From an uncultured Bdellovibrionales bacterium (GTDB taxonomy: Bacteria > Patescibacteriota > Minisyncoccia > Moranbacterales > UBA1568), in NCBI GenBank assembly GCA_964624415.1, contig CAZUWR010000004.1, positions 1 to 61,290 on the forward strand: a DNA stretch of 61,290 nt. Direction: 5' to 3'. The notes below the pieces were generated by a model. The model was not told the origin of the DNA, ran no database searches, and saw only the letters and a list, made by a program, of their open reading frames with translations. Position 1 is the first letter of the stretch, and every line of letters starts with the position of its first letter. Below, in pieces: positions 1-54,798 of the stretch. A program made the position numbers and the translations under genes.

Positions 1-1493
<1,493 letters not shown>

Positions 1494-3069: not shown

Positions 3070-3627
3070 TTAGGCCCGCGAGACATAGGTCCCCTGCTCG
3101 GTGTTGATGACGATGCGGTCGCCTTCTTTGACGAAAAGCGGCGTTGTCACTTTCAGCCCCGTTTCCACCGTCACCACTTTGTCACCGCCGGATACAGAAT
3201 CCCCCTTGATTCCCGGAGGCGCATCGGTCACGAGCAATGTCATCTTGATCGGCAGCTCCATATTGACCGGCTGTCCATTGAACTGCAGGATGGTCACCTC
3301 TGTCCCTTCCACTAGATACGAAGCATTCTGACCGAGCGTTTCCTTGGACAAGAAGAACTGATCGTACGTCTCATTGTTCATAAAGACATAGTTTTCTCCC
3401 TCCTGGTACAGGTATTGGGCCTTAGCCTTGGACATATCGGCATTGTCAATCTTTTCCGATCCCTGGAAGGTCTTGTCGATGACTGCACCCGTCAGCAAGT
3501 TCTTGAGTTTCGTGCGCAGCACCGCACCGGCACGACCGGTCTTGGAATGTTCATGATGCAGCACGACGTATGGCTGGTCTTCCCAAAGGATGTTTTTTCC
3601 TGTTTTGATTTCGCTGAGATTCAACAT
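3070..3627 (-). CDS. efp: elongation factor P
   Basis: ORF 3070..3669 trimmed to Met15: MLNLSEIKTGKNILWEDQPYVVLHHEHSKTGRAGAVLRTKLKNLLTG... with VTDAPPGIKGDSVSGGDKVVTVETG. Length of 185 aa and three-domain EF-P layout. Confidence 0.93.
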   Translation of the reverse strand: MLNLSEIKTGKNILWEDQPYVVLHHEHSKTGRAGAVLRTKLKNLLTGAVIDKTFQGSEKIDNADMSKAKAQYLYQEGENYVFMNNETYDQFFLSKETLGQNASYLVEGTEVTILQFNGQPVNMELPIKMTLLVTDAPPGIKGDSVSGGDKVVTVETGLKVTTPLFVKEGDRIVINTEQGTYVSRA

Positions 3628-3637
3628 AGGATTATAT

Positions 3638-3790
3638 AACTGAACTATCACAATTTTTTCCGCCCCCAAGACTCGAAGGCCTTTGCGTTACCTGAAAATA
3701 TCCCTCACTCGACACAATCAATGGCTATTTTCAGAACGCAGAAAGCCGTCTCAGACATATTGGGTTCGGAAAAATTGTAATAATTCAGTT
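3638..3790 (-). ncRNA. candidate structured RNA element, copy 1 (~153-nt extended hairpin between rpsR and efp)
   Basis: - Outer arms 3638-3662 / 3767-3790 pair over 24 positions.
- Inner stem CTGAAAATA/TATTTTCAG closes a 25-nt apex.
- The 37-nt core 3695-3731 is identical to 38724-38760.
- Both non-Watson-Crick positions of the outer stem are C:A on the plus strand but G:U in a minus-strand transcript. Confidence 0.55.
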
Positions 3791-3806
3791 CTTTGAGTAA
3801 CGAGGA

Positions 3807-4013
3807 TTATCGAATGACATACGGGATCAACGCCATAAAACGGGCGCGCTTGATCGCCTGCGTCAGCTCACGCTGCTGCTTGGTGCTCAGACCGTACTTC
3901 TTCGGTGGGTAAATCTTCCCCTGCGAGTTCAGGAAACGGCGCAAAAAATACGCGTCCTTGTAATCGATATTGTCGAGCTTCTCGGAAGAAGCGGTATTTT
4001 TAGTGTCTATCAT
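3807..4013 (-). CDS. rpsR: 30S ribosomal protein S18
   Basis: 68 aa, DYKDAYFLRRFLNSQGKIYPPKKYGLSTKQQRELTQAIKRARFMALIPY. Last gene of the rpsF-ssb-rpsR arrangement. Confidence 0.93.
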   Translation of the reverse strand: MIDTKNTASSEKLDNIDYKDAYFLRRFLNSQGKIYPPKKYGLSTKQQRELTQAIKRARFMALIPYVIR

Positions 4014-8786: not shown

Positions 8787-9824
8787 CTATATCACCTCTT
8801 TCACCTTATCCATAATCGCCTTTTCTATCTCCTGCAAAATAGGTTGATTGGCCTTCAGGAAAGTTTTAGCGACTTCACGCCCTACACCGAGCTTCACCTC
8901 GCCGAAGAGATATGAATTGCCGGACTTCTTGATGACTTCGAGTTTCACGCCGGTATCGAGAATATCGCCGGACTGCGAGATACCCTCATTGTACATGATA
9001 TCGAATTCAGCTGTACGGAAAGGCGGCGCTACTTTGTTCTTGACTACTTTAACATTCACGCGATTTCCCACCACACTATCATCCTTTTTGATCTGAGCTG
9101 CACGGCGAATCTCGATACGGACAGACGCGTAGAATTTGAGCGCATTGCCACCGGTCGTCGTCTCCGGATTGCCAAACATCACGCCGATCTTCATACGGAT
9201 CTGATTGATGAAGATGACCGTCACATTGGAACGCGCTATGATAGCGGTCAGCTTACGCAAAGCCTGAGACATCAATCTCGCTTGGCGCCCTACATGCTGA
9301 TCGCCCATCTCGCCTTCAATTTCCGCCTTAGGGACAAGCGCTGCCACCGAGTCGACTACGATCACCGCCACGGAATTCGAACGCACCAGTGTCTCGACGA
9401 TATCGAGTGCCTGCTCTCCGGTATCAGGCTGAGAAATCAGAAGGTTGTTGATATCGACTCCGATTTTTTTGGCATACTCAGGATCAAGCGCGTGCTCAGC
9501 ATCGACAAAGGCCGCAATACCACCTGCCTTCTGAGCACTGGCCACGATATGAAGCGTCAGTGTCGTCTTTCCGGAAGATTCCGGTCCATAGATCTCGATA
9601 ATTCTTCCTCGGGGCACGCCACCGATACCGAGCGCCATATCCAGCGACACTGATCCGGTCGGAATAGCCTCCACGTCCACCTTGCGCACATCACCCAGCC
9701 GCATAATAATCCCCTCACCGAATTTTTCCTGCAGATCATCCACCAAAGCATCGATAGTCTTGTCCCCTTTGACACTCATCACCTTATCCGGTGTTTTTTC
9801 TTTTGCTCCGAATTTTGCTGCCAT
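8787..9824 (-). CDS. recA: recombinase RecA
   Basis: [18 protein letters not shown] (Walker A), [40 protein letters not shown]. 345 aa. Confidence 0.97.
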
Positions 9825-13606: not shown

Positions 13607-13769
13607 TATACTGAAACTTACACCTAACTGCGTGTACCATTCCAATATTTCGGCTGCGACTTTGAGAAAATCACTCAACGTATCTACGGATATGTCTTCT
13701 CATTTTCACTTCGTCTCGCTCGAAATATCAAAATAGTCCTGTACGCAGTTAGGTGTAAGTTTCAGTATA
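13607..13769. other. 163-nt hairpin with 27-bp perfect stem upstream of ftsK
   Basis: TATACTGAAACTTACACCTAACTGCGT (13607-13633) is the exact reverse complement of ACGCAGTTAGGTGTAAGTTTCAGTATA (13743-13769). The interior has further pairing (AATATTTCG / CGAAATAT). Confidence 0.6.
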
Positions 13770-34218: not shown

Positions 34219-35226
34219 TTAACGCTGTTCTTTGTATTGCTTGTTCAACCGCACAAACAAAGACCCAACCGCGATCATGGCAAATCCAGCCAAAATAAGC
34301 GCTAATGGCCACCCGAAACTGTCGGCGAAGTATTCTCCTGTGATCTTGAAAATATACCCGACGAGTGCGAGTGATCCAATAATCAGGAAGGATCGGCTCC
34401 GTAATGGCAAACTCAAGAAAACCGAACCGAGCGAAAGTCCTGGAAAAATGAGTTCCCAAAAAATACTCTGATCCGGAGCGTATCCACCCAAAGTAAGCGC
34501 CGCACCGAAAAAGAATACGAGCCCGAATGAGTACAAATACTGAGTCAAGAGTACAAGACGATTCTGGACAAACGCATGTCCGAGCAATACATAGACCAAA
34601 CCGATAATCAGGAATTGATACGAAGCGAAATCACCTTCCGAAAAGATCGCCGTTCCGGAAGCGAGCCAACCGGTGATGCTCCAAAACAATCCCGTACCGA
34701 ACACGATACCAAAAAACGCGAAGAGGTCTTTGACAAATACCCTATACGAAACCACATATGCTGCAAAAAGCGCCGCATAAATCACGCTCATCGCCCCGAA
34801 TCCGGACGTATCTGCACCCATTTCATCCAGTGTCACAAACAATCCTATCGGCAAAACGAAAGCCGCGATCAAGTGAAACGCCTGCCCTATGGTAACGCGT
34901 GCCTCCTCACGGGAAAACATCACACCCAAAAAGTATGCCAATACACCCGAGCCGAGCGTCGACACAATCCGGGTAAATACACTGAGCTCATCCCAATGCT
35001 GCGAAAGAAAAATACCGATACCGATCACGACAATACCTCCGCCCAAATAGTACAAGATGTCCGCCATATGAAACGCTGGTGCGGATACGACTTCCGTAGA
35101 TGCAGCCCCCTCGTCATATGCCCTCACCACTTCTTCGCGCGATACCTGTTTTTCCTGAGATAACAGCGTTATCCCCTGGAGCAATTCTTCTTTATTCATA
35201 CAAGGATATCTTATTGGTTTATCCAC
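34219..35226 (-). CDS. polytopic membrane protein, DUF2157-like
   Basis: Short soluble N-terminus (NKEELLQGITLLSQEKQVSREEVVRAYDEG) followed by ~9 TM helices. The family call rests on overall architecture only. An alternative start at Met10 (35199) would remove the 16-nt overlap with the upstream gene. Confidence 0.5.
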   Translation of the reverse strand: MDKPIRYPCMNKEELLQGITLLSQEKQVSREEVVRAYDEGAASTEVVSAPAFHMADILYYLGGGIVVIGIGIFLSQHWDELSVFTRIVSTLGSGVLAYFLGVMFSREEARVTIGQAFHLIAAFVLPIGLFVTLDEMGADTSGFGAMSVIYAALFAAYVVSYRVFVKDLFAFFGIVFGTGLFWSITGWLASGTAIFSEGDFASYQFLIIGLVYVLLGHAFVQNRLVLLTQYLYSFGLVFFFGAALTLGGYAPDQSIFWELIFPGLSLGSVFLSLPLRSRSFLIIGSLALVGYIFKITGEYFADSFGWPLALILAGFAMIAVGSLFVRLNKQYKEQR

Positions 35227-35732
35227 CCGACAAACTCGAAATCATACGCATTATTGACTCCGCGCAATTCCAGCTTCTGACTGACCAAATGCCCAGTCAG
35301 ATATAAAGCCGGTACGGAGCTACCCCCGAATGGCCCGCTATACCCACCACTTTGAGAAACCTTGAAGCCATCAGACGATTGAATACGGTCATCAAGCTTC
35401 AACTGCGCCGCCTCATCAAAAGCAATACTCCTGCTTTCGCCAGTCGCCACATCATAGCGATACAGATGCGGTTCGACATACTGAGCCTTCATCGTCTCCG
35501 GTACTGAATCATCTCTTCGTGTCTCTTCTTTCACCAACTTACCGTTCACGACACGCACCGCATATGAGGGAATGACATACCCTTTCGTTGTATCGTTGGC
35601 AACATACACAAAACCATACGCGGGCTTCGGCGCCCACAAGCGAGGCAGATAGATACTCCCCGCCACGAAAAGTATCATCGCCACAGGCAATGCGACTGCC
35701 AACCACACCGACCAATTCTTTTTGATATCCAT
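35211..35732 (-). CDS. hypothetical signal-anchored extracytoplasmic protein
   Basis: 173 aa. MDIKKNWSVWLAVALPVAMILFVAGSIYLPR anchor, then a beta-rich domain. No family recognised. The N-terminal 29 aa are shared with the next gene. Confidence 0.6.
   Translation of the reverse strand: MDIKKNWSVWLAVALPVAMILFVAGSIYLPRLWAPKPAYGFVYVANDTTKGYVIPSYAVRVVNGKLVKEETRRDDSVPETMKAQYVEPHLYRYDVATGESRSIAFDEAAQLKLDDRIQSSDGFKVSQSGGYSGPFGGSSVPALYLTGHLVSQKLELRGVNNAYDFEFVGWINQ
35644..35732 (-). repeat. duplicated signal-anchor module, copy 1
   Basis: ~89 nt, roughly 85 percent identical by eye to 36190-36278, ending in the identical GCCAACCACACCGACCAATTCTTTTTGATATCCAT. Encodes MDIKKNWSVWLAV.LPVA.I.FVAGS.YLPR. 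Confidence 0.8.
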
Positions 35733-35783
35733 AGAAATAAAAAATAATAGTTTATGCTAGCTATTGCACTTTGCGTTTAGAAA

Positions 35784-36278
35784 CTAATTTACGAAAACAT
35801 CTGTTTCTCCTGTATCATCAAGGTTTAATACGGATTGACTCTCAGCTCTGATTATTATCCGGAAAGCGCCTACTATTTCCGCCGGAATTTCAATCTCTGT
35901 TTTAATATCCATAGATTTTCCAGGTTTTAAAAATACGGTTTCCGGAATATTTTTAATATTTATCCGTACCGGTAAGGTCAAATTTTTATCAATATTATAA
36001 ACGGATGCATCCGCACTAAGATGATAGGTGTCTGCATTCAGACCTAAATTAGTTACTTTAAATTCGTACGAATTCATCCCTTTCTGAAAATTTGACTTAT
36101 ATGGAGCTTTTACGCTTACACTATAAGGGGTCTCTATTTTTGAATTCTCTTCAAATGATATCCCTACATTAGAATCATTCGAGTGCCTTGGTAGATACAT
36201 ACTCCCCGCCACAAATATGATTATGGCCACAGGTAACACGACCGCCAACCACACCGACCAATTCTTTTTGATATCCAT
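35784..36278 (-). CDS. hypothetical signal-anchored protein with Ig-like/beta-sandwich-looking domain (AT-rich cassette)
   Basis: ORF 35784..36338 trimmed to Met21 (MDIKKNWSVWLAVVLPVAIIIFVAGSMYLPR). The remainder (FKVTNLGLNADTYHLSADAS...LKPGKSMDIKTEIEIPAEIVGAFRIIIRAES) resembles CARDB/NEW3-type beta-sandwich repeats. The body of the gene is markedly AT-rich. Confidence 0.55.
   Translation of the reverse strand: MDIKKNWSVWLAVVLPVAIIIFVAGSMYLPRHSNDSNVGISFEENSKIETPYSVSVKAPYKSNFQKGMNSYEFKVTNLGLNADTYHLSADASVYNIDKNLTLPVRINIKNIPETVFLKPGKSMDIKTEIEIPAEIVGAFRIIIRAESQSVLNLDDTGETDVFVN
36190..36278 (-). repeat. duplicated signal-anchor module, copy 2
   Basis: See 35644-35732. Similarity stops abruptly downstream of the anchor. 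Confidence 0.8.
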
Positions 36279-36387
36279 AAAGATAAAGCTTAATAAAATA
36301 CAAATGCTTCCTAATGCCAGTATATCACCTTCGGACACATCTTCAAGAAATTGAAAGACTCCTCCATTACTGAAAGAGCCTTTATAC

Positions 36388-37582: not shown

Positions 37583-38635
37583 CTACACCTTGAAAATCAT
37601 CACATCGCCATCCTTGACGATATATTCTTTACCCTCAAGACGAAGCTTGCCGGTCTCGCGTGCCTTGCCCCAGGCTCCGGCATCGAGCAGGTCCTGCCAA
37701 TGGATCACTTCCGCGCGGATGAATTTGTCTTCGAAGTCGCTGTGGATGGCTGCGCCTGCCTGCGGCGCGGTCGAGCCCTGCTTGATCGTCCAAGCACGCG
37801 TCTCCTGTTCGCCCGTGGTGAAAAAAGTCATCAGTCCCAAAAGCGAATAGGCTTTGCGGATCAAATCGTGAATATGCGATTGCAATTCCAACTCCTGTTT
37901 ATCCTCCTCGGACATATCCATCAATTCCTCCTCGATCTTGATATCCAATCGCACATACGGCTTTTCCTCCAAGTGTGCCGGAAGCGTCGCCTCAAGATCC
38001 GACATATTATACACATACAAAAACGGCTTGGCGGTCAAGAGCGACAACTCGATCATCAGCTTCCTCACGGCTTCGTCCTGCATATTGACGGGCACGGTAT
38101 TGGCGAGCTGTCCTTTGGACAACCCTGTTTCCAAAGCCTCAAGCACCCCGAACTGCGCGATCGCTTCCTTGTTGCCGGCGCGCACTTCCTTGATACTGCG
38201 AACTTTGCGCTTGGCGATGGTTTCCATATCCGCCAAAATAAGCTCGGTATTGACGATATCGATATCGTGCTCACCATCCACCTTGTTGTGCACGTGGATG
38301 ATATTCGGATTTTCGAACAAACGCACCACCTGCACAATGGCATCCACCTCGCGGATATTGGCCAAAAATTTATTCCCCAATCCCTCGCCCTGACTTGCCC
38401 CTTTGACGAGTCCCGCGATATCCACAAATTCCACCACGGCCGGTACGATCTTTTTCGTCTTGGACATATCCGACAATTGCTGCAAACGGGTGTCCGGCAC
38501 TTCCACGATGCCCACATTGGGCTCGATAGTGCAGAATGGATAATTGTTGATATCCACCGTTTTGCGCGTCAATACCTTGAACAGGGTTGATTTCCCCACA
38601 TTCGGCAGCCCCACGATTCCAACTTGCAATGCCAT
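37583..38635 (-). CDS. ychF: ribosome-binding ATPase YchF
   Basis: [23 protein letters not shown] (G1), [20 protein letters not shown], and a TGS-like C-terminus [15 protein letters not shown]. 350 aa. Confidence 0.95.
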
Positions 38636-38664
38636 AAGAGTAGTATTAAAAAAATATCTTGTTT

Positions 38665-38819
38665 CTTGCTCGGGTATTCAAAATTTTTGTCCAAATAGAC
38701 TCGGGCTGTATGTTTTTTATCTAAAAATATCCCTCACTCGACACAATCAATGGCTATTTTTAGAAAAAACATACGCCCTTAAACAATATTTGACCAAAAA
38801 TTTCAAACACCCAAGCGAG
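38665..38819 (-). ncRNA. candidate structured RNA element, copy 2 (~155-nt extended hairpin upstream of ychF)
   Basis: - Outer arms 38665-38688 / 38796-38819.
- Nearly continuous helix down to CTAAAAATA/TATTTTTAG, which closes the same 25-nt apex.
- The core 38724-38760 is identical to 3695-3731.
- Of five non-Watson-Crick outer-stem positions, four become G:U only in the minus-strand transcript. Confidence 0.55.
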
Positions 38820-38983
38820 AAAATGTAAGCGTGACTATACCCCATTCTAGCGGAAAAATGGGGAAAAGTAAAGGTTTCGGCATTGTGAGGCAAAGTAAAA
38901 AGCGCCGGGAAGATACATTGTCTCTATATTATTATAGAGACATATCTTCATCGACGCTTCGGTGCTCGGTTTCGAGCAGAAAC

Positions 38984-51453: not shown

Positions 51454-53949
51454 ATGCTCGAATCAAAAATATCCCGAAAACTCACCTTTCATGCCAGGCA
51501 CAGCCTCAAAGAGGCTGCTGAAATAGCTGTTTTCTGCAAAGACACCGCTATCAAGCCCAAACACCTCCTTTTTGCCGTGCACAGCGAAAAAGGCAGTCTT
51601 GGGAGTGTTTTGCTTGAAAATATGGGTTTTACGCAAAAAATACTCACCAAATTCTGCATCGACAAACCCAAAACGAAAGCGGGTGTATCGAAAAAATCAT
51701 CGCGATCAATCGCGAAAGTCACCTTTTCCGAGGGAACAAAAGATATTATCACCCGAGCATATTCGATTGCCAGTCAGTTCGCTTATCCTTATGTCGGATC
51801 CGAACACCTCGTCTATGCTCTTATCGAATCGTCCGATGCCGATATCGCGGCCCTCATCGAAACGATGCATATCAAAAAACAGGATATGAAAGCAGCTCTC
51901 ACATCTCATATTAATATGTCCGATATCCCAAACCTTTCCAAGATATTCAATCTGCCATCCACCGGTCTCTCCAAAACCAAGCAGACCAAACAATCTTCCG
52001 AAACACCATTCCTCGACCAGTACGGCATAGATCTGACCGAGGAAGCTAAACACAACCCTGAAATCATCACCGGGCGGACAGTGGAAATCGAACGGATGAT
52101 ACAGATTCTCGGACGTCGCAGCAAGAACAATCCCCTTCTGATCGGCGAACCGGGCGTGGGCAAGACAACTCTTGTAAGCGCTTTGGCTAAGAAAATGGCT
52201 CAAGGGGGTGCTGGACATCAATTCCTGAATAAGCGAATCATCGGTCTCGATTTGGCACTCGTAGTCGCAGGCACGAGCTTTCGCGGCGAATTTGAAGCGC
52301 GCCTTAAGGAAATCATCTACGAGGCTTCCGACAACCCGGATATCATCTTATTTATCGATGAAATCCATACCATTGTCGGTGCCGGTAACACGTCCGGAGG
52401 ATTGGACGCAGCCAATATTCTCAAACCTGCTCTCTCTCGCGGCGACCTGCAGTGCATCGGCGCCACCACCTTTGCCGAATACAAAAAGCATATTGAGAAA
52501 GATCCAGCTTTCGAAAGACGTTTTCAAGCTATCACGATAGCGGAACCAACTGCCCAAGAAGCCAAGCGCATTCTTGAAGAAAGCAAGGTTTTGTATGAGA
52601 CCTATCACAATACCATCATCACTCAAGAAGCGATAACGGCGGCGGTAGATTTTTCTATACGATTTATGCCTGATCGTTTTCTCCCTGACAAAGCCTTCGA
52701 CCTGATTGACGAGACCGCTTCGGCGCTGCGTCAGAAAAAACCGATCAGCCCGCTCCTCAAAACGATGCATGCCTTAAAGGAGGAACGGAAAGAACAGATC
52801 AAACTCAAAGAAGAACTGGTACAGCAAGATCGATTCGAAGAAGCCATCGCCCTGCAAAAAGCGGAAAAACTCCTGCGGCAGAAAATCAAAAAGCTGTCAG
52901 CGAAACTGAAAAAGAATCATAAACAAGACGCTATCACCGTACACGCCGTCGATATCGCTCGCGTCGTCGCTCAAATCACGCATATCCCCCTCAATAAAAT
53001 CATGTCCCAACGACAAGAATCACTCAGAGGACTTGAAAAAAACCTGGACAAGTATATTATCGGACAACCCGAAGTGGTCGGGAAACTTTCCAAAACGCTT
53101 CTGCGTTCGCTCAGCGGTGTTAGCCACCCTGATCGACCTCTTGGATCATTCCTCTTCCTTGGCCCGAGCGGTGTCGGAAAGACTTTGGCTGCCAAGATAC
53201 TTTCTGAGACGCTCTTTGGAGACAAGCACTCCCTTATCCGTCTGGATATGAGCGAATTCATCGAGCGTCACAGTATCGCGCAAATCATCGGTGCGCCCGC
53301 CGGCTACATCGGCTACGGCGAGGGCGGAAAACTGACCGAAAAAGTCCGCCGCAAACCCTACAGCGTCATCTTATTCGATGAAATCGAGAAGGCGCACCCG
53401 GACGTCTTCAATATTCTCTTGCAAATTCTCGATGAGGGTATGCTGACCGATGCCGAAGGACGCAAAGTAAGCTTCCGCAATACTATCATCATTCTGACAT
53501 CCAATATCGGTACCCAGGCCTTCACGCAAACCGCACGCATCGGTTTCCACGACCATCTGCCGCACCAGGCTTTGCAGGAACAATTCGAAACCATTCAAAA
53601 AGATGTCCTTGTCGAGCTCAAACAACAACTTCGCCCGGAGCTTCTCAATCGTCTGGACAATATTATCGTCTTCCAGCCGCTCGATAAAGAGGGTATGCGC
53701 AAGATAGCCAAGCTCGAACTGCAAGCGCTCGTAGCCCGATTAGCTGCTCAATCCATTACACTCCGCTACAAAAAAGACACCGTCGACTTCATTACGGAAA
53801 AAAGCTTCACGCCCGAGCAAGGCGCTCGGCTGGTACGCAAAAATATCCAGGACTTCGTGGAAAATGCCGTCGCAGAAAGACTGCTCGCGCAGCCGACAGC
53901 CAACACCGTAACGCTTGCAATCGTGAAGGGTATCGTCGTGGTGAAGTAA
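51454..53949 (+). CDS. clpC: ATP-dependent Clp protease ATP-binding subunit (ClpC-type class I AAA+)
   Basis: Clp_N repeats, AAA-1 GEPGVGKTTLV / ILFIDEIH, a short UVR-like linker (EELVQQDRFEEAIALQKAEKLL), and AAA-2 GPSGVGKTLAA / ILFDEIEKAH. 831 aa. Confidence 0.88.
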   Translation: MLESKISRKLTFHARHSLKEAAEIAVFCKDTAIKPKHLLFAVHSEKGSLGSVLLENMGFTQKILTKFCIDKPKTKAGVSKKSSRSIAKVTFSEGTKDIITRAYSIASQFAYPYVGSEHLVYALIESSDADIAALIETMHIKKQDMKAALTSHINMSDIPNLSKIFNLPSTGLSKTKQTKQSSETPFLDQYGIDLTEEAKHNPEIITGRTVEIERMIQILGRRSKNNPLLIGEPGVGKTTLVSALAKKMAQGGAGHQFLNKRIIGLDLALVVAGTSFRGEFEARLKEIIYEASDNPDIILFIDEIHTIVGAGNTSGGLDAANILKPALSRGDLQCIGATTFAEYKKHIEKDPAFERRFQAITIAEPTAQEAKRILEESKVLYETYHNTIITQEAITAAVDFSIRFMPDRFLPDKAFDLIDETASALRQKKPISPLLKTMHALKEERKEQIKLKEELVQQDRFEEAIALQKAEKLLRQKIKKLSAKLKKNHKQDAITVHAVDIARVVAQITHIPLNKIMSQRQESLRGLEKNLDKYIIGQPEVVGKLSKTLLRSLSGVSHPDRPLGSFLFLGPSGVGKTLAAKILSETLFGDKHSLIRLDMSEFIERHSIAQIIGAPAGYIGYGEGGKLTEKVRRKPYSVILFDEIEKAHPDVFNILLQILDEGMLTDAEGRKVSFRNTIIILTSNIGTQAFTQTARIGFHDHLPHQALQEQFETIQKDVLVELKQQLRPELLNRLDNIIVFQPLDKEGMRKIAKLELQALVARLAAQSITLRYKKDTVDFITEKSFTPEQGARLVRKNIQDFVENAVAERLLAQPTANTVTLAIVKGIVVVK

Positions 53950-53980
53950 ATCAATGAGAGCGAACAAGCCTTGTATGAAA

Positions 53981-54062
53981 ATACGAAGTGTCGCAAGGAT
54001 TTTTCATGACCACTTTGCGTAGTCGCTCTGGTCTTGAAAAATTTCTTGCGTACACTTCGTAT
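53981..54062 (+). other. ~82-nt three-tier hairpin between clpC and comF
   Basis: ATACGAAGTGT (53981-53991) / ACACTTCGTAT (54052-54062), then CGCAAG..TTTTTCA / TGAAAAA..CTTGCG, then GACCA / TGGTC. No U-tract follows. It ends 14 nt before the comF ATG. Confidence 0.5.
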
Positions 54063-54075
54063 ACGATCAATCGCT

Positions 54076-54798
54076 ATGCGAATGTTTACAAAAATACAAA
54101 CGTTCATTTTCGACACCCTCTTCCCTATCGAGTGCATCGGATGCGGCCGGTCGAAGACCTATCTGTGCGAAGTATGCCTTTCGATTCTTCCGATTCATAC
54201 GGATCAAAGATGCCCCGTCTGCACCAAACGTGATACTATGCACGGCCAGGTCTGTTTCGATTGTCTCGGACAAACATCGCTCGATGGTCTTTTGGTTGCA
54301 TCATCATACAAAAATCCGCTTCTTTCCAAAGCTATTCATCTCTACAAATACCGTTTCATACAACCATTGAGTCATCCGCTCGGGCAGCTCCTCGTGCAAT
54401 CCGTCACGCATTCGGAAATACCACTCCCGGATATGCTCTGTCCCGTCCCACTCCATCCCCTACGTCTTCGGTGGCGCGGCTTCAATCAATCCTATCTCCT
54501 TGCCCAAGCACTCAGCACCGCGCTCATCCCGCAACTCCCTATCCCGCTTACGAAGAGACTTTCGCGTACACGCTTCACATTGCCTCAAATGAGCATTCGC
54601 GATGCCGACGAACGGAAGAATAATATCCGCGATGCTTTTGCCTGGAAACCTTCCACTTCCGATACAGCAGACATTCAAGGAAAATATATCTGGCTCATCG
54701 ACGATGTCGCCACCACCACCTCCACCCTCGATGAGTGCGCCAAAATCCTCAAAAAAAACGGCGCCAAGAAAGTCTTTGGCGTCGTCTTGGCACGATAA
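54076..54798 (+). CDS. comF: ComF-family protein (ComFC-like phosphoribosyltransferase)
   Basis: N-terminal Cys pairs (CIGCG..CEVC, CPVC..CFDC) and a C-terminal PRTase motif YIWLIDDVATTTSTL. Trimmed from the TTG at 54034 to the ATG at 54076. Confidence 0.8.
   Translation: MRMFTKIQTFIFDTLFPIECIGCGRSKTYLCEVCLSILPIHTDQRCPVCTKRDTMHGQVCFDCLGQTSLDGLLVASSYKNPLLSKAIHLYKYRFIQPLSHPLGQLLVQSVTHSEIPLPDMLCPVPLHPLRLRWRGFNQSYLLAQALSTALIPQLPIPLTKRLSRTRFTLPQMSIRDADERKNNIRDAFAWKPSTSDTADIQGKYIWLIDDVATTTSTLDECAKILKKNGAKKVFGVVLAR

Follow-up and report, generated by a model that had tools for sequence, protein, structure and literature searches.

Two long hairpins upstream of efp and ychF as likely copies of a dispersed hairpin repeat in Moranbacteria

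REPINs are doublets of REP (repetitive extragenic palindromic) sequences that form hairpins and are mobilized by RAYT transposases (Bertels & Rainey 2011, PMC3116915), and YPAL/RU-2 of Yersinia, ERIC, Correia/NEMIS, RUP, and RPE are long-hairpin MITEs (transposable elements that are miniature and carry inverted repeats) of bacteria (Delihas 2008, PMC2229807). We analyze here two long hairpins that precede efp (copy 1) and ychF (copy 2) in contig CAZUWR010000004.1, of which the first 61,290 nucleotides (nt) are referred to as the window. By analogy, these hairpins appear closest in kind to the REPINs and to the long-hairpin MITEs, among which YPAL/RU-2 comes first, followed by ERIC and Correia. 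A sequence-only reading of the window had proposed that the two hairpins form a leader shared by genes of ribosome-associated factors. We consider it rather likely that both are instead copies of a dispersed, non-autonomous hairpin (foldback) repeat of Moranbacteria and related small-genome bacteria; the repeat is probably mobile, and the position of both copies before translation-factor genes looks like a coincidence.

Patescibacteria, or candidate phyla radiation (CPR), have dense genomes of about 1 Mb in which mobile DNA and known regulatory RNAs are thought to be scarce. Even a 9-nt spacer between essential genes can receive the repeat, and the repeat family offers a handle both on how small genomes tolerate, and perhaps exploit, insertions and on a putative protein that reads the invariant loop. 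For annotation, the lesson is that long hairpins before efp or ychF in such organisms are not to be read as gene-specific leaders.

Like REPINs, the family is short, non-coding, dispersed, and extragenic, would form a single long hairpin in single-stranded DNA (ssDNA) or mRNA, and shows compensatory changes and long vertical persistence; the mobilization of REPINs in trans, by an enzyme encoded elsewhere, is counted as a further likeness. The two differ in that the REPIN ends (inverted REP 16-mers) are invariant and the spacer is variable, whereas the family has an invariant center and copy-specific ends. The family is also about twice as long and lacks the GTAG/REP motif, and no RAYT gene (Y1 HUH) was seen in the 61-kb window.

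The likeness to the long-hairpin MITEs lies in a length of 100 to 170 bp, a non-coding intergenic nature, the occurrence of filled and empty sites, and co-transcription into long RNA stem-loops, to which the orientation-dependent consequences of ERIC and Correia for mRNA (RNase E, RNase III) may be added. With YPAL, the family also shares internal rather than terminal conservation and the absence of TA ends. Set against the description of MITEs (PMC2229807), the family falls below their size limit of 200 to 300 bp and is non-coding, multicopy, and dispersed between genes, with empty and filled sites at copy 1, copy 2, and the copy of locus L013. Canonical MITEs differ in having conserved terminal inverted repeats and target-site duplications (often TA), neither of which is seen in the family, and YPAL differs in its dyad-symmetric targets and duplications of 3 to 26 bp, neither of which is present at the two empty sites analyzed here. 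None of YPAL, ERIC, Correia, RUP, and RPE combines an invariant apical loop with copy-specific outer stems, and no parent insertion sequence was found in the window or next to the copies.

Integron attC sites carry R''/L''...L'/R' boxes (RYYYAAC...GTTRRRY) at their ends around a variable center and form arrays by intI, whereas the copies analyzed here are solitary, have a conserved center, and lack such boxes. TIGR arrays (Faure et al. 2025, PMC12045711) belong to TIGR-Tas systems of phages and parasitic bacteria; they occur in the same kind of organisms and have variable, consistently palindromic stems around a loop with short conserved motifs like box C/D. They are, however, tandem arrays by a tas gene with variable loop spacers, and a TIGR stem-loop array was rejected as an explanation because the copies are solitary and dispersed, their loop is invariant, and no tas gene, or adjacent Nop-domain gene, is present nearby.

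Two hairpins with a common apex

The hairpins and the features around them are listed below; loci outside the window carry L numbers.

38662-38822, minus strand: copy 2, complete long hairpin (minimum free energy fold; covariance-model match at 38678-38806(-), 110 bits; orthologues in L032 and L022)
38731-38753, minus strand: 23-nt apical core of copy 2, sense CCAUUGAUUGUGUCGAGUGAGGG (exact match in both window copies)
37583-38635, minus strand: ychF, downstream of copy 2 (Pfam YchF-GTPase_C, MMR_HSR1)
38844-38872, minus strand: promoter-like site of ychF, -35 TTTACT, 17 nt, -10 TAGAAT (promoter scan)
38919-38942, minus strand: terminator-like hairpin belonging to the gene upstream, bounding the ychF transcription unit on that side (terminator scan)
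3638-3790, minus strand: copy 1, complete long hairpin, subfamily A (minimum free energy fold; covariance-model match at 3650-3779(-), 121.7 bits)
3702-3724, minus strand: apical core (23 nt) of copy 1 (identical to the core of copy 2)
3791-3806, minus strand: 16 nt from the rpsR stop to the base of the hairpin, sense UCCUCGUUACUCAAAG (window compared with L002)
3070-3627, minus strand: efp, downstream of copy 1 (Pfam EFP_N, EFP, Elong-fact-P_C)
3807-4013, minus strand: rpsR, upstream of copy 1 (Pfam Ribosomal_S18)

The sense strand of both copies is the minus strand of the window. Folded as minus-strand RNA, copy 2 reaches -68.2 kcal/mol (z -9.3) versus -54.0 kcal/mol for plus-strand RNA, and copy 1 reaches -68.6 kcal/mol (z -7.3) versus -52.3 kcal/mol, an advantage of about 15 kcal/mol for the minus strand in both; none of 200 shuffles folded as well. 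The copies have in common a direct repeat of 49 nt (3688-3736 and 38717-38765, 94% identity), within which a 23-mer matches exactly. Arms of about 55 nt surround each repeat, and these are unlike in sequence between the copies yet complementary within each copy.

The sequence-only reading had deduced from wobble positions that the hairpins work as minus-strand RNA, and direct reading bears out all seven non-Watson-Crick positions that it listed. In six of them, a plus-strand C:A or A:C turns into G:U or U:G on the minus strand (3645c/3783a, 3649c/3779a, 38671c/38813a, 38676a/38808c, 38679c/38805a, and 38680a/38804c), and 38667t/38817g is the sole listed pair that favors the plus strand. It was also right that rpsR, efp, and ychF are all encoded on the minus strand (Pfam), and that 10 nt separate the end of copy 1 from the efp ATG; the gap to the rpsR stop is 16 nt rather than 17, and copy 2 lies 26 nt, rather than about 30, from the ychF ATG. 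As had been noted, copy 1 has no room for a promoter of its own and must therefore be co-transcribed with rpsR-efp; a promoter scan at copy 1 found no promoter-like site.

A family of dispersed copies

The family comprises at least 21 independent insertions of 150 to 190 nt in Moranbacteria, in which the window is placed by its EF-P and YchF homologues, and in related metagenome-assembled genomes (MAGs); all are intergenic. A scan of one genome per species for a core 20-mer returned five copies in MAG CAYVME01, which is labeled 'uncultured Bdellovibrionales', and one in a Candidatus Moraniibacteriota MAG, and a scan of metagenome contigs with a 19-base pattern gave 19 further matches. Every match of the two scans folds as a hairpin of 150 to 190 nt. 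A covariance model (R1) was built from 18 copies; members score 100 to 144 bits, and the model brought in two more copies, one at L007 7152-7289, whose core is degenerate, and one at L035 9818-9945, which has diverged. Three groups can be told apart:

Subfamily A: copy 1, L009, L013, L014, L019-L021, L027
Copy-2 type: window, L032, L022, L035
Subfamily B: CAYVME/AMFJ and Ga0172380 contigs

Known families were sought in several collections. At the gathering threshold, Rfam 15 found nothing in the window but one tRNA, and in E-value mode it gave only generic miRNA-precursor hairpin models and noise, far under threshold, so that a known RNA family was rejected. A phage or plasmid origin was likewise rejected, as no viral contig holds an exact core match and blastn against phage and plasmid collections gave no match. 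By these sequence comparisons, the hairpin family appears to be previously uncatalogued in the RNA, phage, and plasmid catalogues searched.

The alignment argues for maintained pairing. Standard pairs fill 94.3% of its cells versus 80.9% in shuffles, both sides have changed in 25 of 43 pairs (a number that none of 500 shuffles reaches), and pairing falls to 61 to 67% when the partner is shifted by one column. Conservation is highest at the apex (CCAUUGAUUGUGUCGAGUGAGGG), where the core is identical or nearly so in the copies of other genomes found by scanning for its pattern. The inner stems and a conserved asymmetric internal loop (UGAG facing YGAG) show an intermediate degree, and the outermost stems, of which the last 5 to 25 bp are wholly different between copies, show none. 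These outermost stems are copy specific yet complementary, even among L016, L018, and L024, whose inner ~110 nt are identical.

A kink-turn consists of a C-stem, a 3-nt bulge, tandem sheared G.A/A.G pairs, and then a non-canonical stem. By eye, the apex, CC-AUU-GA-UUGUGUCGAGU-GA-GG, fits this consensus, with the variable positions in the terminal loop; the L035 variant keeps GA...GA-GGG and has a bulge of 4 nt. It can be hypothesized that the family is a CPR-specific, new structured-RNA element, a hairpin whose kink-turn-like apical loop recruits a dedicated protein, and which is either a self-propagating RNA-based mobile element or a context-free multicopy RNA gene cassette. This would explain why one fixed strand keeps its fold even where the host transcribes the other. 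We regard this as distinctly unlikely, though worth stating.

Two other readings of the core were rejected. All subfamily-A copies have an open frame of 17 codons (copy 1: 3699-3752, minus strand), which starts with ATG or TTG, continues as S/F-E-T-x-F-x-V-L-K-I-S/A-I-D-C-V-E, and stops at a TGA inside the core; copy 2 has a 12-codon version (38728-38766, minus strand). A small peptide gene was rejected because subfamily B lacks the start codon and has an in-frame stop, yet has the same core, and from the sequence the subfamily-A frame is probably incidental. A site for IHF in the core was rejected because AATCAATGGCTAT does not fit WATCAANNNNTTR.

Comparison of genomes shows both gain and loss of copies among close relatives. 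At the site of copy 1, L002, L003, L029, L030, and L031 have no element, and their rpsR-efp spacer is 9 nt (L002 and L003), 17 nt (L029), or 10 nt (L030 and L031) long. EF-P is 83 to 100% identical in these relatives, and identical in L002 and L003, whose spacer consists of TATATTCCT only and matches window positions 3628-3637. The sequences thus compared indicate that the short spacer is ancestral and that copy 1 with 16 extra nt is an insertion of about 170 nt; the 16 nt at 3791-3806 appear to have arrived with the insertion because they are also missing from the empty sites. Local alignment of the flanks with the adjacent arm ends was no better than that of shuffles, and derivation of the outer stems, or of duplications, from the target was rejected on this ground. 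Insertion into a pre-existing hairpin or terminator was also rejected, as the empty sites of copies 1 and 2 are without dyad symmetry. Short-read (Logan) contigs from the sample of the window itself end inside the core.

The same spacer in L028 (9923-10000, EF-P 94% identical) is 78 nt long and holds an unrelated 50-nt hairpin, GCGATATCTCATTGAGT...ACTCAATAAGATATCGC. On the opposite strand this hairpin includes TGAGTCTGTTGAAAGAAAAC, similar to the 3' arm of subfamily A (TGAGTCTTGTTTTTGAGAAAAA). The hairpin escapes detection by the covariance model and may be what a deletion has left of a different insertion.

A third empty site was found in the window itself. L013, which is syntenic with window 49-60 kb, has its copy between clpC and the next gene, and the syntenic site after clpC in the window holds 127 nt of other sequence and no family copy. 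Within this spacer, at 53985-54037, lies a hairpin of about 50 nt, AAGGATTTTTCATGACC...GGTCTTGAAAAATTTCTT, with an A/T-run stem like the mid-stem of the family and no core.

For copy 2, presence and absence are distributed among relatives as follows:

L032: YchF 97% identical, copy 2 present
L022: neighboring genes 76-83% identical, copy 2 present
L033: YchF 91% identical, copy 2 absent
L034: YchF 89% identical, copy 2 absent
L036: YchF 87% identical, copy 2 absent
L037: YchF 83% identical, copy 2 absent
L038: YchF 79% identical, copy 2 absent

In L035 (YchF 81%), an element of the copy-2 subfamily occupies the same ychF 5' untranslated region (UTR), inverted and with different outermost stems. 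The motif ...CCGCTAGAATGGGGTAT is kept upstream of ychF in L032, L022, L033, L034, and L035, whether the element is present or not. Copy 2 starts about 22 nt after the -10 box of this conserved promoter-like site, and it would therefore be transcribed within the ychF 5' UTR in its favored polarity. This much of the earlier proposal for copy 2 as minus-strand RNA stands, whereas a leader specific to translation genes does not.

It is conceivable that copy 2, and perhaps copy 1, has been co-opted as a functional 5' UTR or intercistronic structure of ychF or efp, and could serve as an RNase III processing site, an mRNA stabilizer, or a protein-binding platform, which is the surviving part of the earlier idea. 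The position and polarity of copy 2 speak for such a role, and the element is 93 to 94% identical among the window, L032, and L022, above its neighboring genes. The outer stems measure 22 to 24 bp, a length sufficient for RNase III, and one of their pairs is G-C in the window, G.U in L022, and A-U in L032, the classic pathway of RNA stem evolution. The five relatives without copy 2 (YchF 79 to 91% identical) argue against it, as do the L035 element, of the same subfamily but inverted in the same UTR and with the weaker fold on the mRNA strand, and the absence of copy 1 from relatives with 100% identical EF-P. High conservation could also stem from gene conversion among family members. Taken together, we judge co-option possible, though unlikely.

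The outer stems of copy 2 also suggest how arms may be kept paired. Four G.T wobbles occur at identical positions in the window and in L022, which is more distant, whereas the outer stem of L032 is perfectly Watson-Crick: all four have been converted within 7 nt of one arm, and this arm now complements the other exactly. From these sequences, it looks as if the L032 arm had been recopied from the other arm in a single event, by a template switch at the DNA level. Since this stem was perfected in what appears to be one event, arm-to-arm recopying probably helps to maintain the complementarity of the arms.

Genomic context and strand asymmetry

The genes that flank the copies, as assigned by Pfam, are diverse: clpC/clpB, hypD-hypE, recJ, cysS, infC, rsgA, trxB, xerC/D-like, DsbD/HMA, PMT_2 glycosyltransferase, exonuclease, MBL-fold, and metal-transport genes. 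The hairpins typically fill their spacers and leave 5 to 20 nt to the stop and start codons. Among the copies between co-oriented neighbors, four are sense to them (copy 1, copy 2, L012, and L021) and six are antisense (L006, L010, L013, L019, L027, and L035).

A dedicated regulatory leader that marks efp, ychF, and similar genes of ribosome-associated factors was the original proposal for these hairpins. It could draw on the fact that both window copies precede translation-related genes, that elsewhere one copy precedes rsgA, one adjoins infC, and one adjoins cysS, and that the ychF 5' UTR has been occupied twice, in the clade of the window and in L035. Most copies, however, flank unrelated genes (clpC, hypD/E, recJ, xerC-like, trxB, DsbD/HMA, PMT_2, exonuclease, and MBL-fold), 6 of the 10 informative copies are antisense, and efp and ychF orthologues are mostly without the element. 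About 6 of 21 copies have a translation-related neighbor, which by rough estimate is near chance in gene-poor, translation-heavy genomes. A fixed position in sense orientation before orthologous genes, as a gene-specific cis-regulatory leader would have, was not found, and we hold this explanation to be highly improbable. The sequence-only reading had itself named homologues in random orientation or context as evidence against its proposal, and diverse neighbors in both orientations are what the family presents.

In L007, the subfamily-B copy L007a (1556-1692) ends 16 nt before a gene for a XerC/XerD-like tyrosine recombinase (1719-2630, 303 amino acids), which is probably a housekeeping recombinase and is the sole recombinase seen adjoining a copy. 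L026 has two subfamily-B copies, 1232-1367(+) and 3285-3420(-), which are inverted and bracket one gene for a metal-handling protein of 611 amino acids (HMA/DsbD_2/cupredoxin), a layout like that of a composite element.

The excess of G:U pairs noted for the window persists with more copies. In a strand-neutral, arm-against-arm alignment of 18 copies, 80 G:T stand against 38 A:C, and the antisense copies have 29 versus 11. In each of the 12 copies tested, the six antisense ones among them, the stronger fold is on the strand that the core defines as sense; the L035 copy, for example, reaches -84.4 kcal/mol on its own sense strand versus -60.4 kcal/mol on the mRNA strand. With DNA parameters, a smaller asymmetry is kept (-38.7 versus -33.0 kcal/mol for copy 2 and -45.2 versus -39.0 kcal/mol for L035), the gain from G.T pairs being about 6 kcal/mol in DNA versus 14 to 24 in RNA. 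GC skew on the sense strand of the element is positive in every copy (+0.08 to +0.38).

Two external causes of the asymmetry were rejected. Genome-wide GC skew would be plausible since both window copies lie on the G-rich strand, but across loci 10 copies lie on the G-rich and 11 of 21 on the C-rich strand, and it fails as a cause because the C-rich-strand copies keep their own skew and the stronger fold on the element sense strand. In one MAG, all six copies share one strand orientation with respect to GC skew. Since the copies counted are not independent in phylogeny, binomial p values on them are only indicative. Host transcription was rejected because six copies are antisense to operons, L013 and L035 especially. 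The strand asymmetry is intrinsic to the element and independent of host transcription and of local GC skew. The earlier preference for an RNA structure over a DNA cruciform or MITE was thus sound in that a symmetric DNA cruciform does not suffice to explain the strand-asymmetric pairing, and fails in that the asymmetry is not tied to the host transcript; a mobile repeat, which had been dismissed, appears to be the better description.

Across the whole window, the plus strand has negative GC skew (-0.06 to -0.22), and the minus strand encodes most of the genes. The block at 51454-54798, which holds clpC and the gene after it, lies on the plus strand, as do a few others, and the skew is unchanged there.

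Asymmetry that does not depend on the direction of host genes could also be explained by a stand-alone family of small-RNA genes, in which each copy would give a hairpin RNA of about 110 to 160 nt from its own promoter and the apex would bind a protein or base-pair with a target. The core is strongly conserved across distant genomes, its kink-turn-like apex includes UGAUUG/GUGA, which by eye resembles box C/D (the two GA dinucleotides being 11 nt apart), and the C/D-box snoRNA model RF00344 gives a sub-threshold match over the copy-2 apex (19 bits, E 0.36). Subfamily A also has, at a fixed place of its aligned 5' arm, a TAnAAT-like hexamer. Against such genes, the hairpins fill their spacers, so that an external promoter would have to sit inside the neighboring gene, and the scan found no promoter-like site at copy 1. 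A promoter in the 5' arm would exclude the outer stem from the RNA, yet the outer stems stay complementary. Presence and absence between close relatives would be unusual for an essential RNA, and the kink-turn is a by-eye reading. We give this explanation little credence.

The same low standing is given to an element or site that acts as ssDNA, whether through an IS200/IS605-, REPIN-, or HUH-type intermediate or as a strand-specific recombination or priming site. It would explain antisense copies without promoters, asymmetry persists with DNA parameters, and G.T mismatches would be tolerated in the DNA hairpin; the uniform orientation in one MAG and the single-event perfecting of the L032 outer stem, a DNA-level process, fit as well. 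Target-site duplications are lacking at the two sites compared empty and filled, and IS200/IS605 and IS91 elements make none. This lack is the sole agreement with IS200/IS605, which inserts in one orientation relative to the replication fork and 3' of a conserved tetra- or pentanucleotide; the family has neither, with no conserved tetranucleotide flanking the insertions and no orientation bias against GC skew across genomes, and IS608-like, replication-oriented insertion was rejected by these 10 versus 11 copies despite the six in one MAG. About 400 kb of gene-annotated sequence revealed no Y1/HUH transposase, and the energy gained from G.T in DNA is small. REPINs provide the precedent for hairpin repeats mobilized as ssDNA (PMC3116915).

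As to the nature of the active strand, we lean slightly toward RNA rather than ssDNA because of the larger wobble energy in RNA, the G.U-dependent pairs in the apex, the kink-turn-like apex itself, and the polarity in which copy 2 is transcribed.

For the reading as a dispersed and probably mobile hairpin repeat, a mechanism can be proposed in which selection acts on the folding of one strand of the element, with fixed polarity, and the invariant apex is the recognition site of a trans-acting protein that propagates or maintains it. Copy 1 would then be a lineage-specific insertion in the rpsR-efp spacer and copy 2 an older insertion in the ychF 5' UTR. Both would by chance be sense to transcribed regions and must form very stable RNA hairpins, and any effect on the expression of efp or ychF would be secondary. 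We know of no mechanism that explains an invariant center, free ends, and a strand bias indifferent to host transcription and replication.

Several observations weigh against this reading. The canonical marks of transposition are missing: the family has no conserved termini, no target-site duplication is visible at copy 1 or copy 2 when filled and empty sites are compared, and no gene for a transposase, integrase, reverse transcriptase, or HUH protein was found in the window or next to most copies. A scan of 40 window open reading frames for a partner enzyme returned only housekeeping genes or frames without a Pfam match, and a single weak rve match was seen in L038. The copy-2 orthologues are, as noted, 93 to 94% identical while the flanking genes are 76 to 89% identical, and between the window and L022 only 3 of 129 inner positions differ, with adjacent non-coding DNA that cannot be aligned; this points to constraint on copy 2 in place, unlike what is expected of a purely selfish element. 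The wobble excess is moderate and concentrated in type A and copy 2 (G:T versus A:C 45:10), and it is weak in subfamily B (35:28). Antisense copies without room for a promoter speak against RNA as the active strand, except as dead-on-arrival insertions. Finally, because members were located through exact-pattern core scans, the invariance of the core is in part an effect of sampling, and the taxonomic range is biased as well; in L007b and L035, the core does vary.

Other hairpins and repeats

The window holds a second hairpin repeat of about 160 nt (13607-13769), unrelated in sequence, with perfect outer arms of 27 bp. Its fold reaches -85.4 kcal/mol for the minus strand versus -71.4 for the plus strand, and its termini, TATACTGAAA...TTTCAGTATA, are conserved in the manner of a classical MITE, whereas the family described above lacks such termini. 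A homologue in the close relative L028 (1302-1429) is 87.5% identical over 128 nt, its mid-stem covaries, and it sits across the CAP-domain gene. The site thus differs between the two genomes, which indicates that the second family also moves and that these genomes host several families of hairpin repeats.

L024 has, at 8985-9170, a 186-nt hairpin whose apex differs (-49.4 kcal/mol, z -6.6). At 34 bits it scores weakly under the family model, and it could be distantly related or represent a third family. A sliding-window scan of minimum free energy for more hairpins was uninformative, as GC-rich coding DNA scores equally low. A direct repeat of 106 nt (84% identity) was also found at 35644-35749 and 36190-36295, within two neighboring hypothetical genes at 35211-35732 and 35784-36338 that have no Pfam match and look like tandem paralogues.

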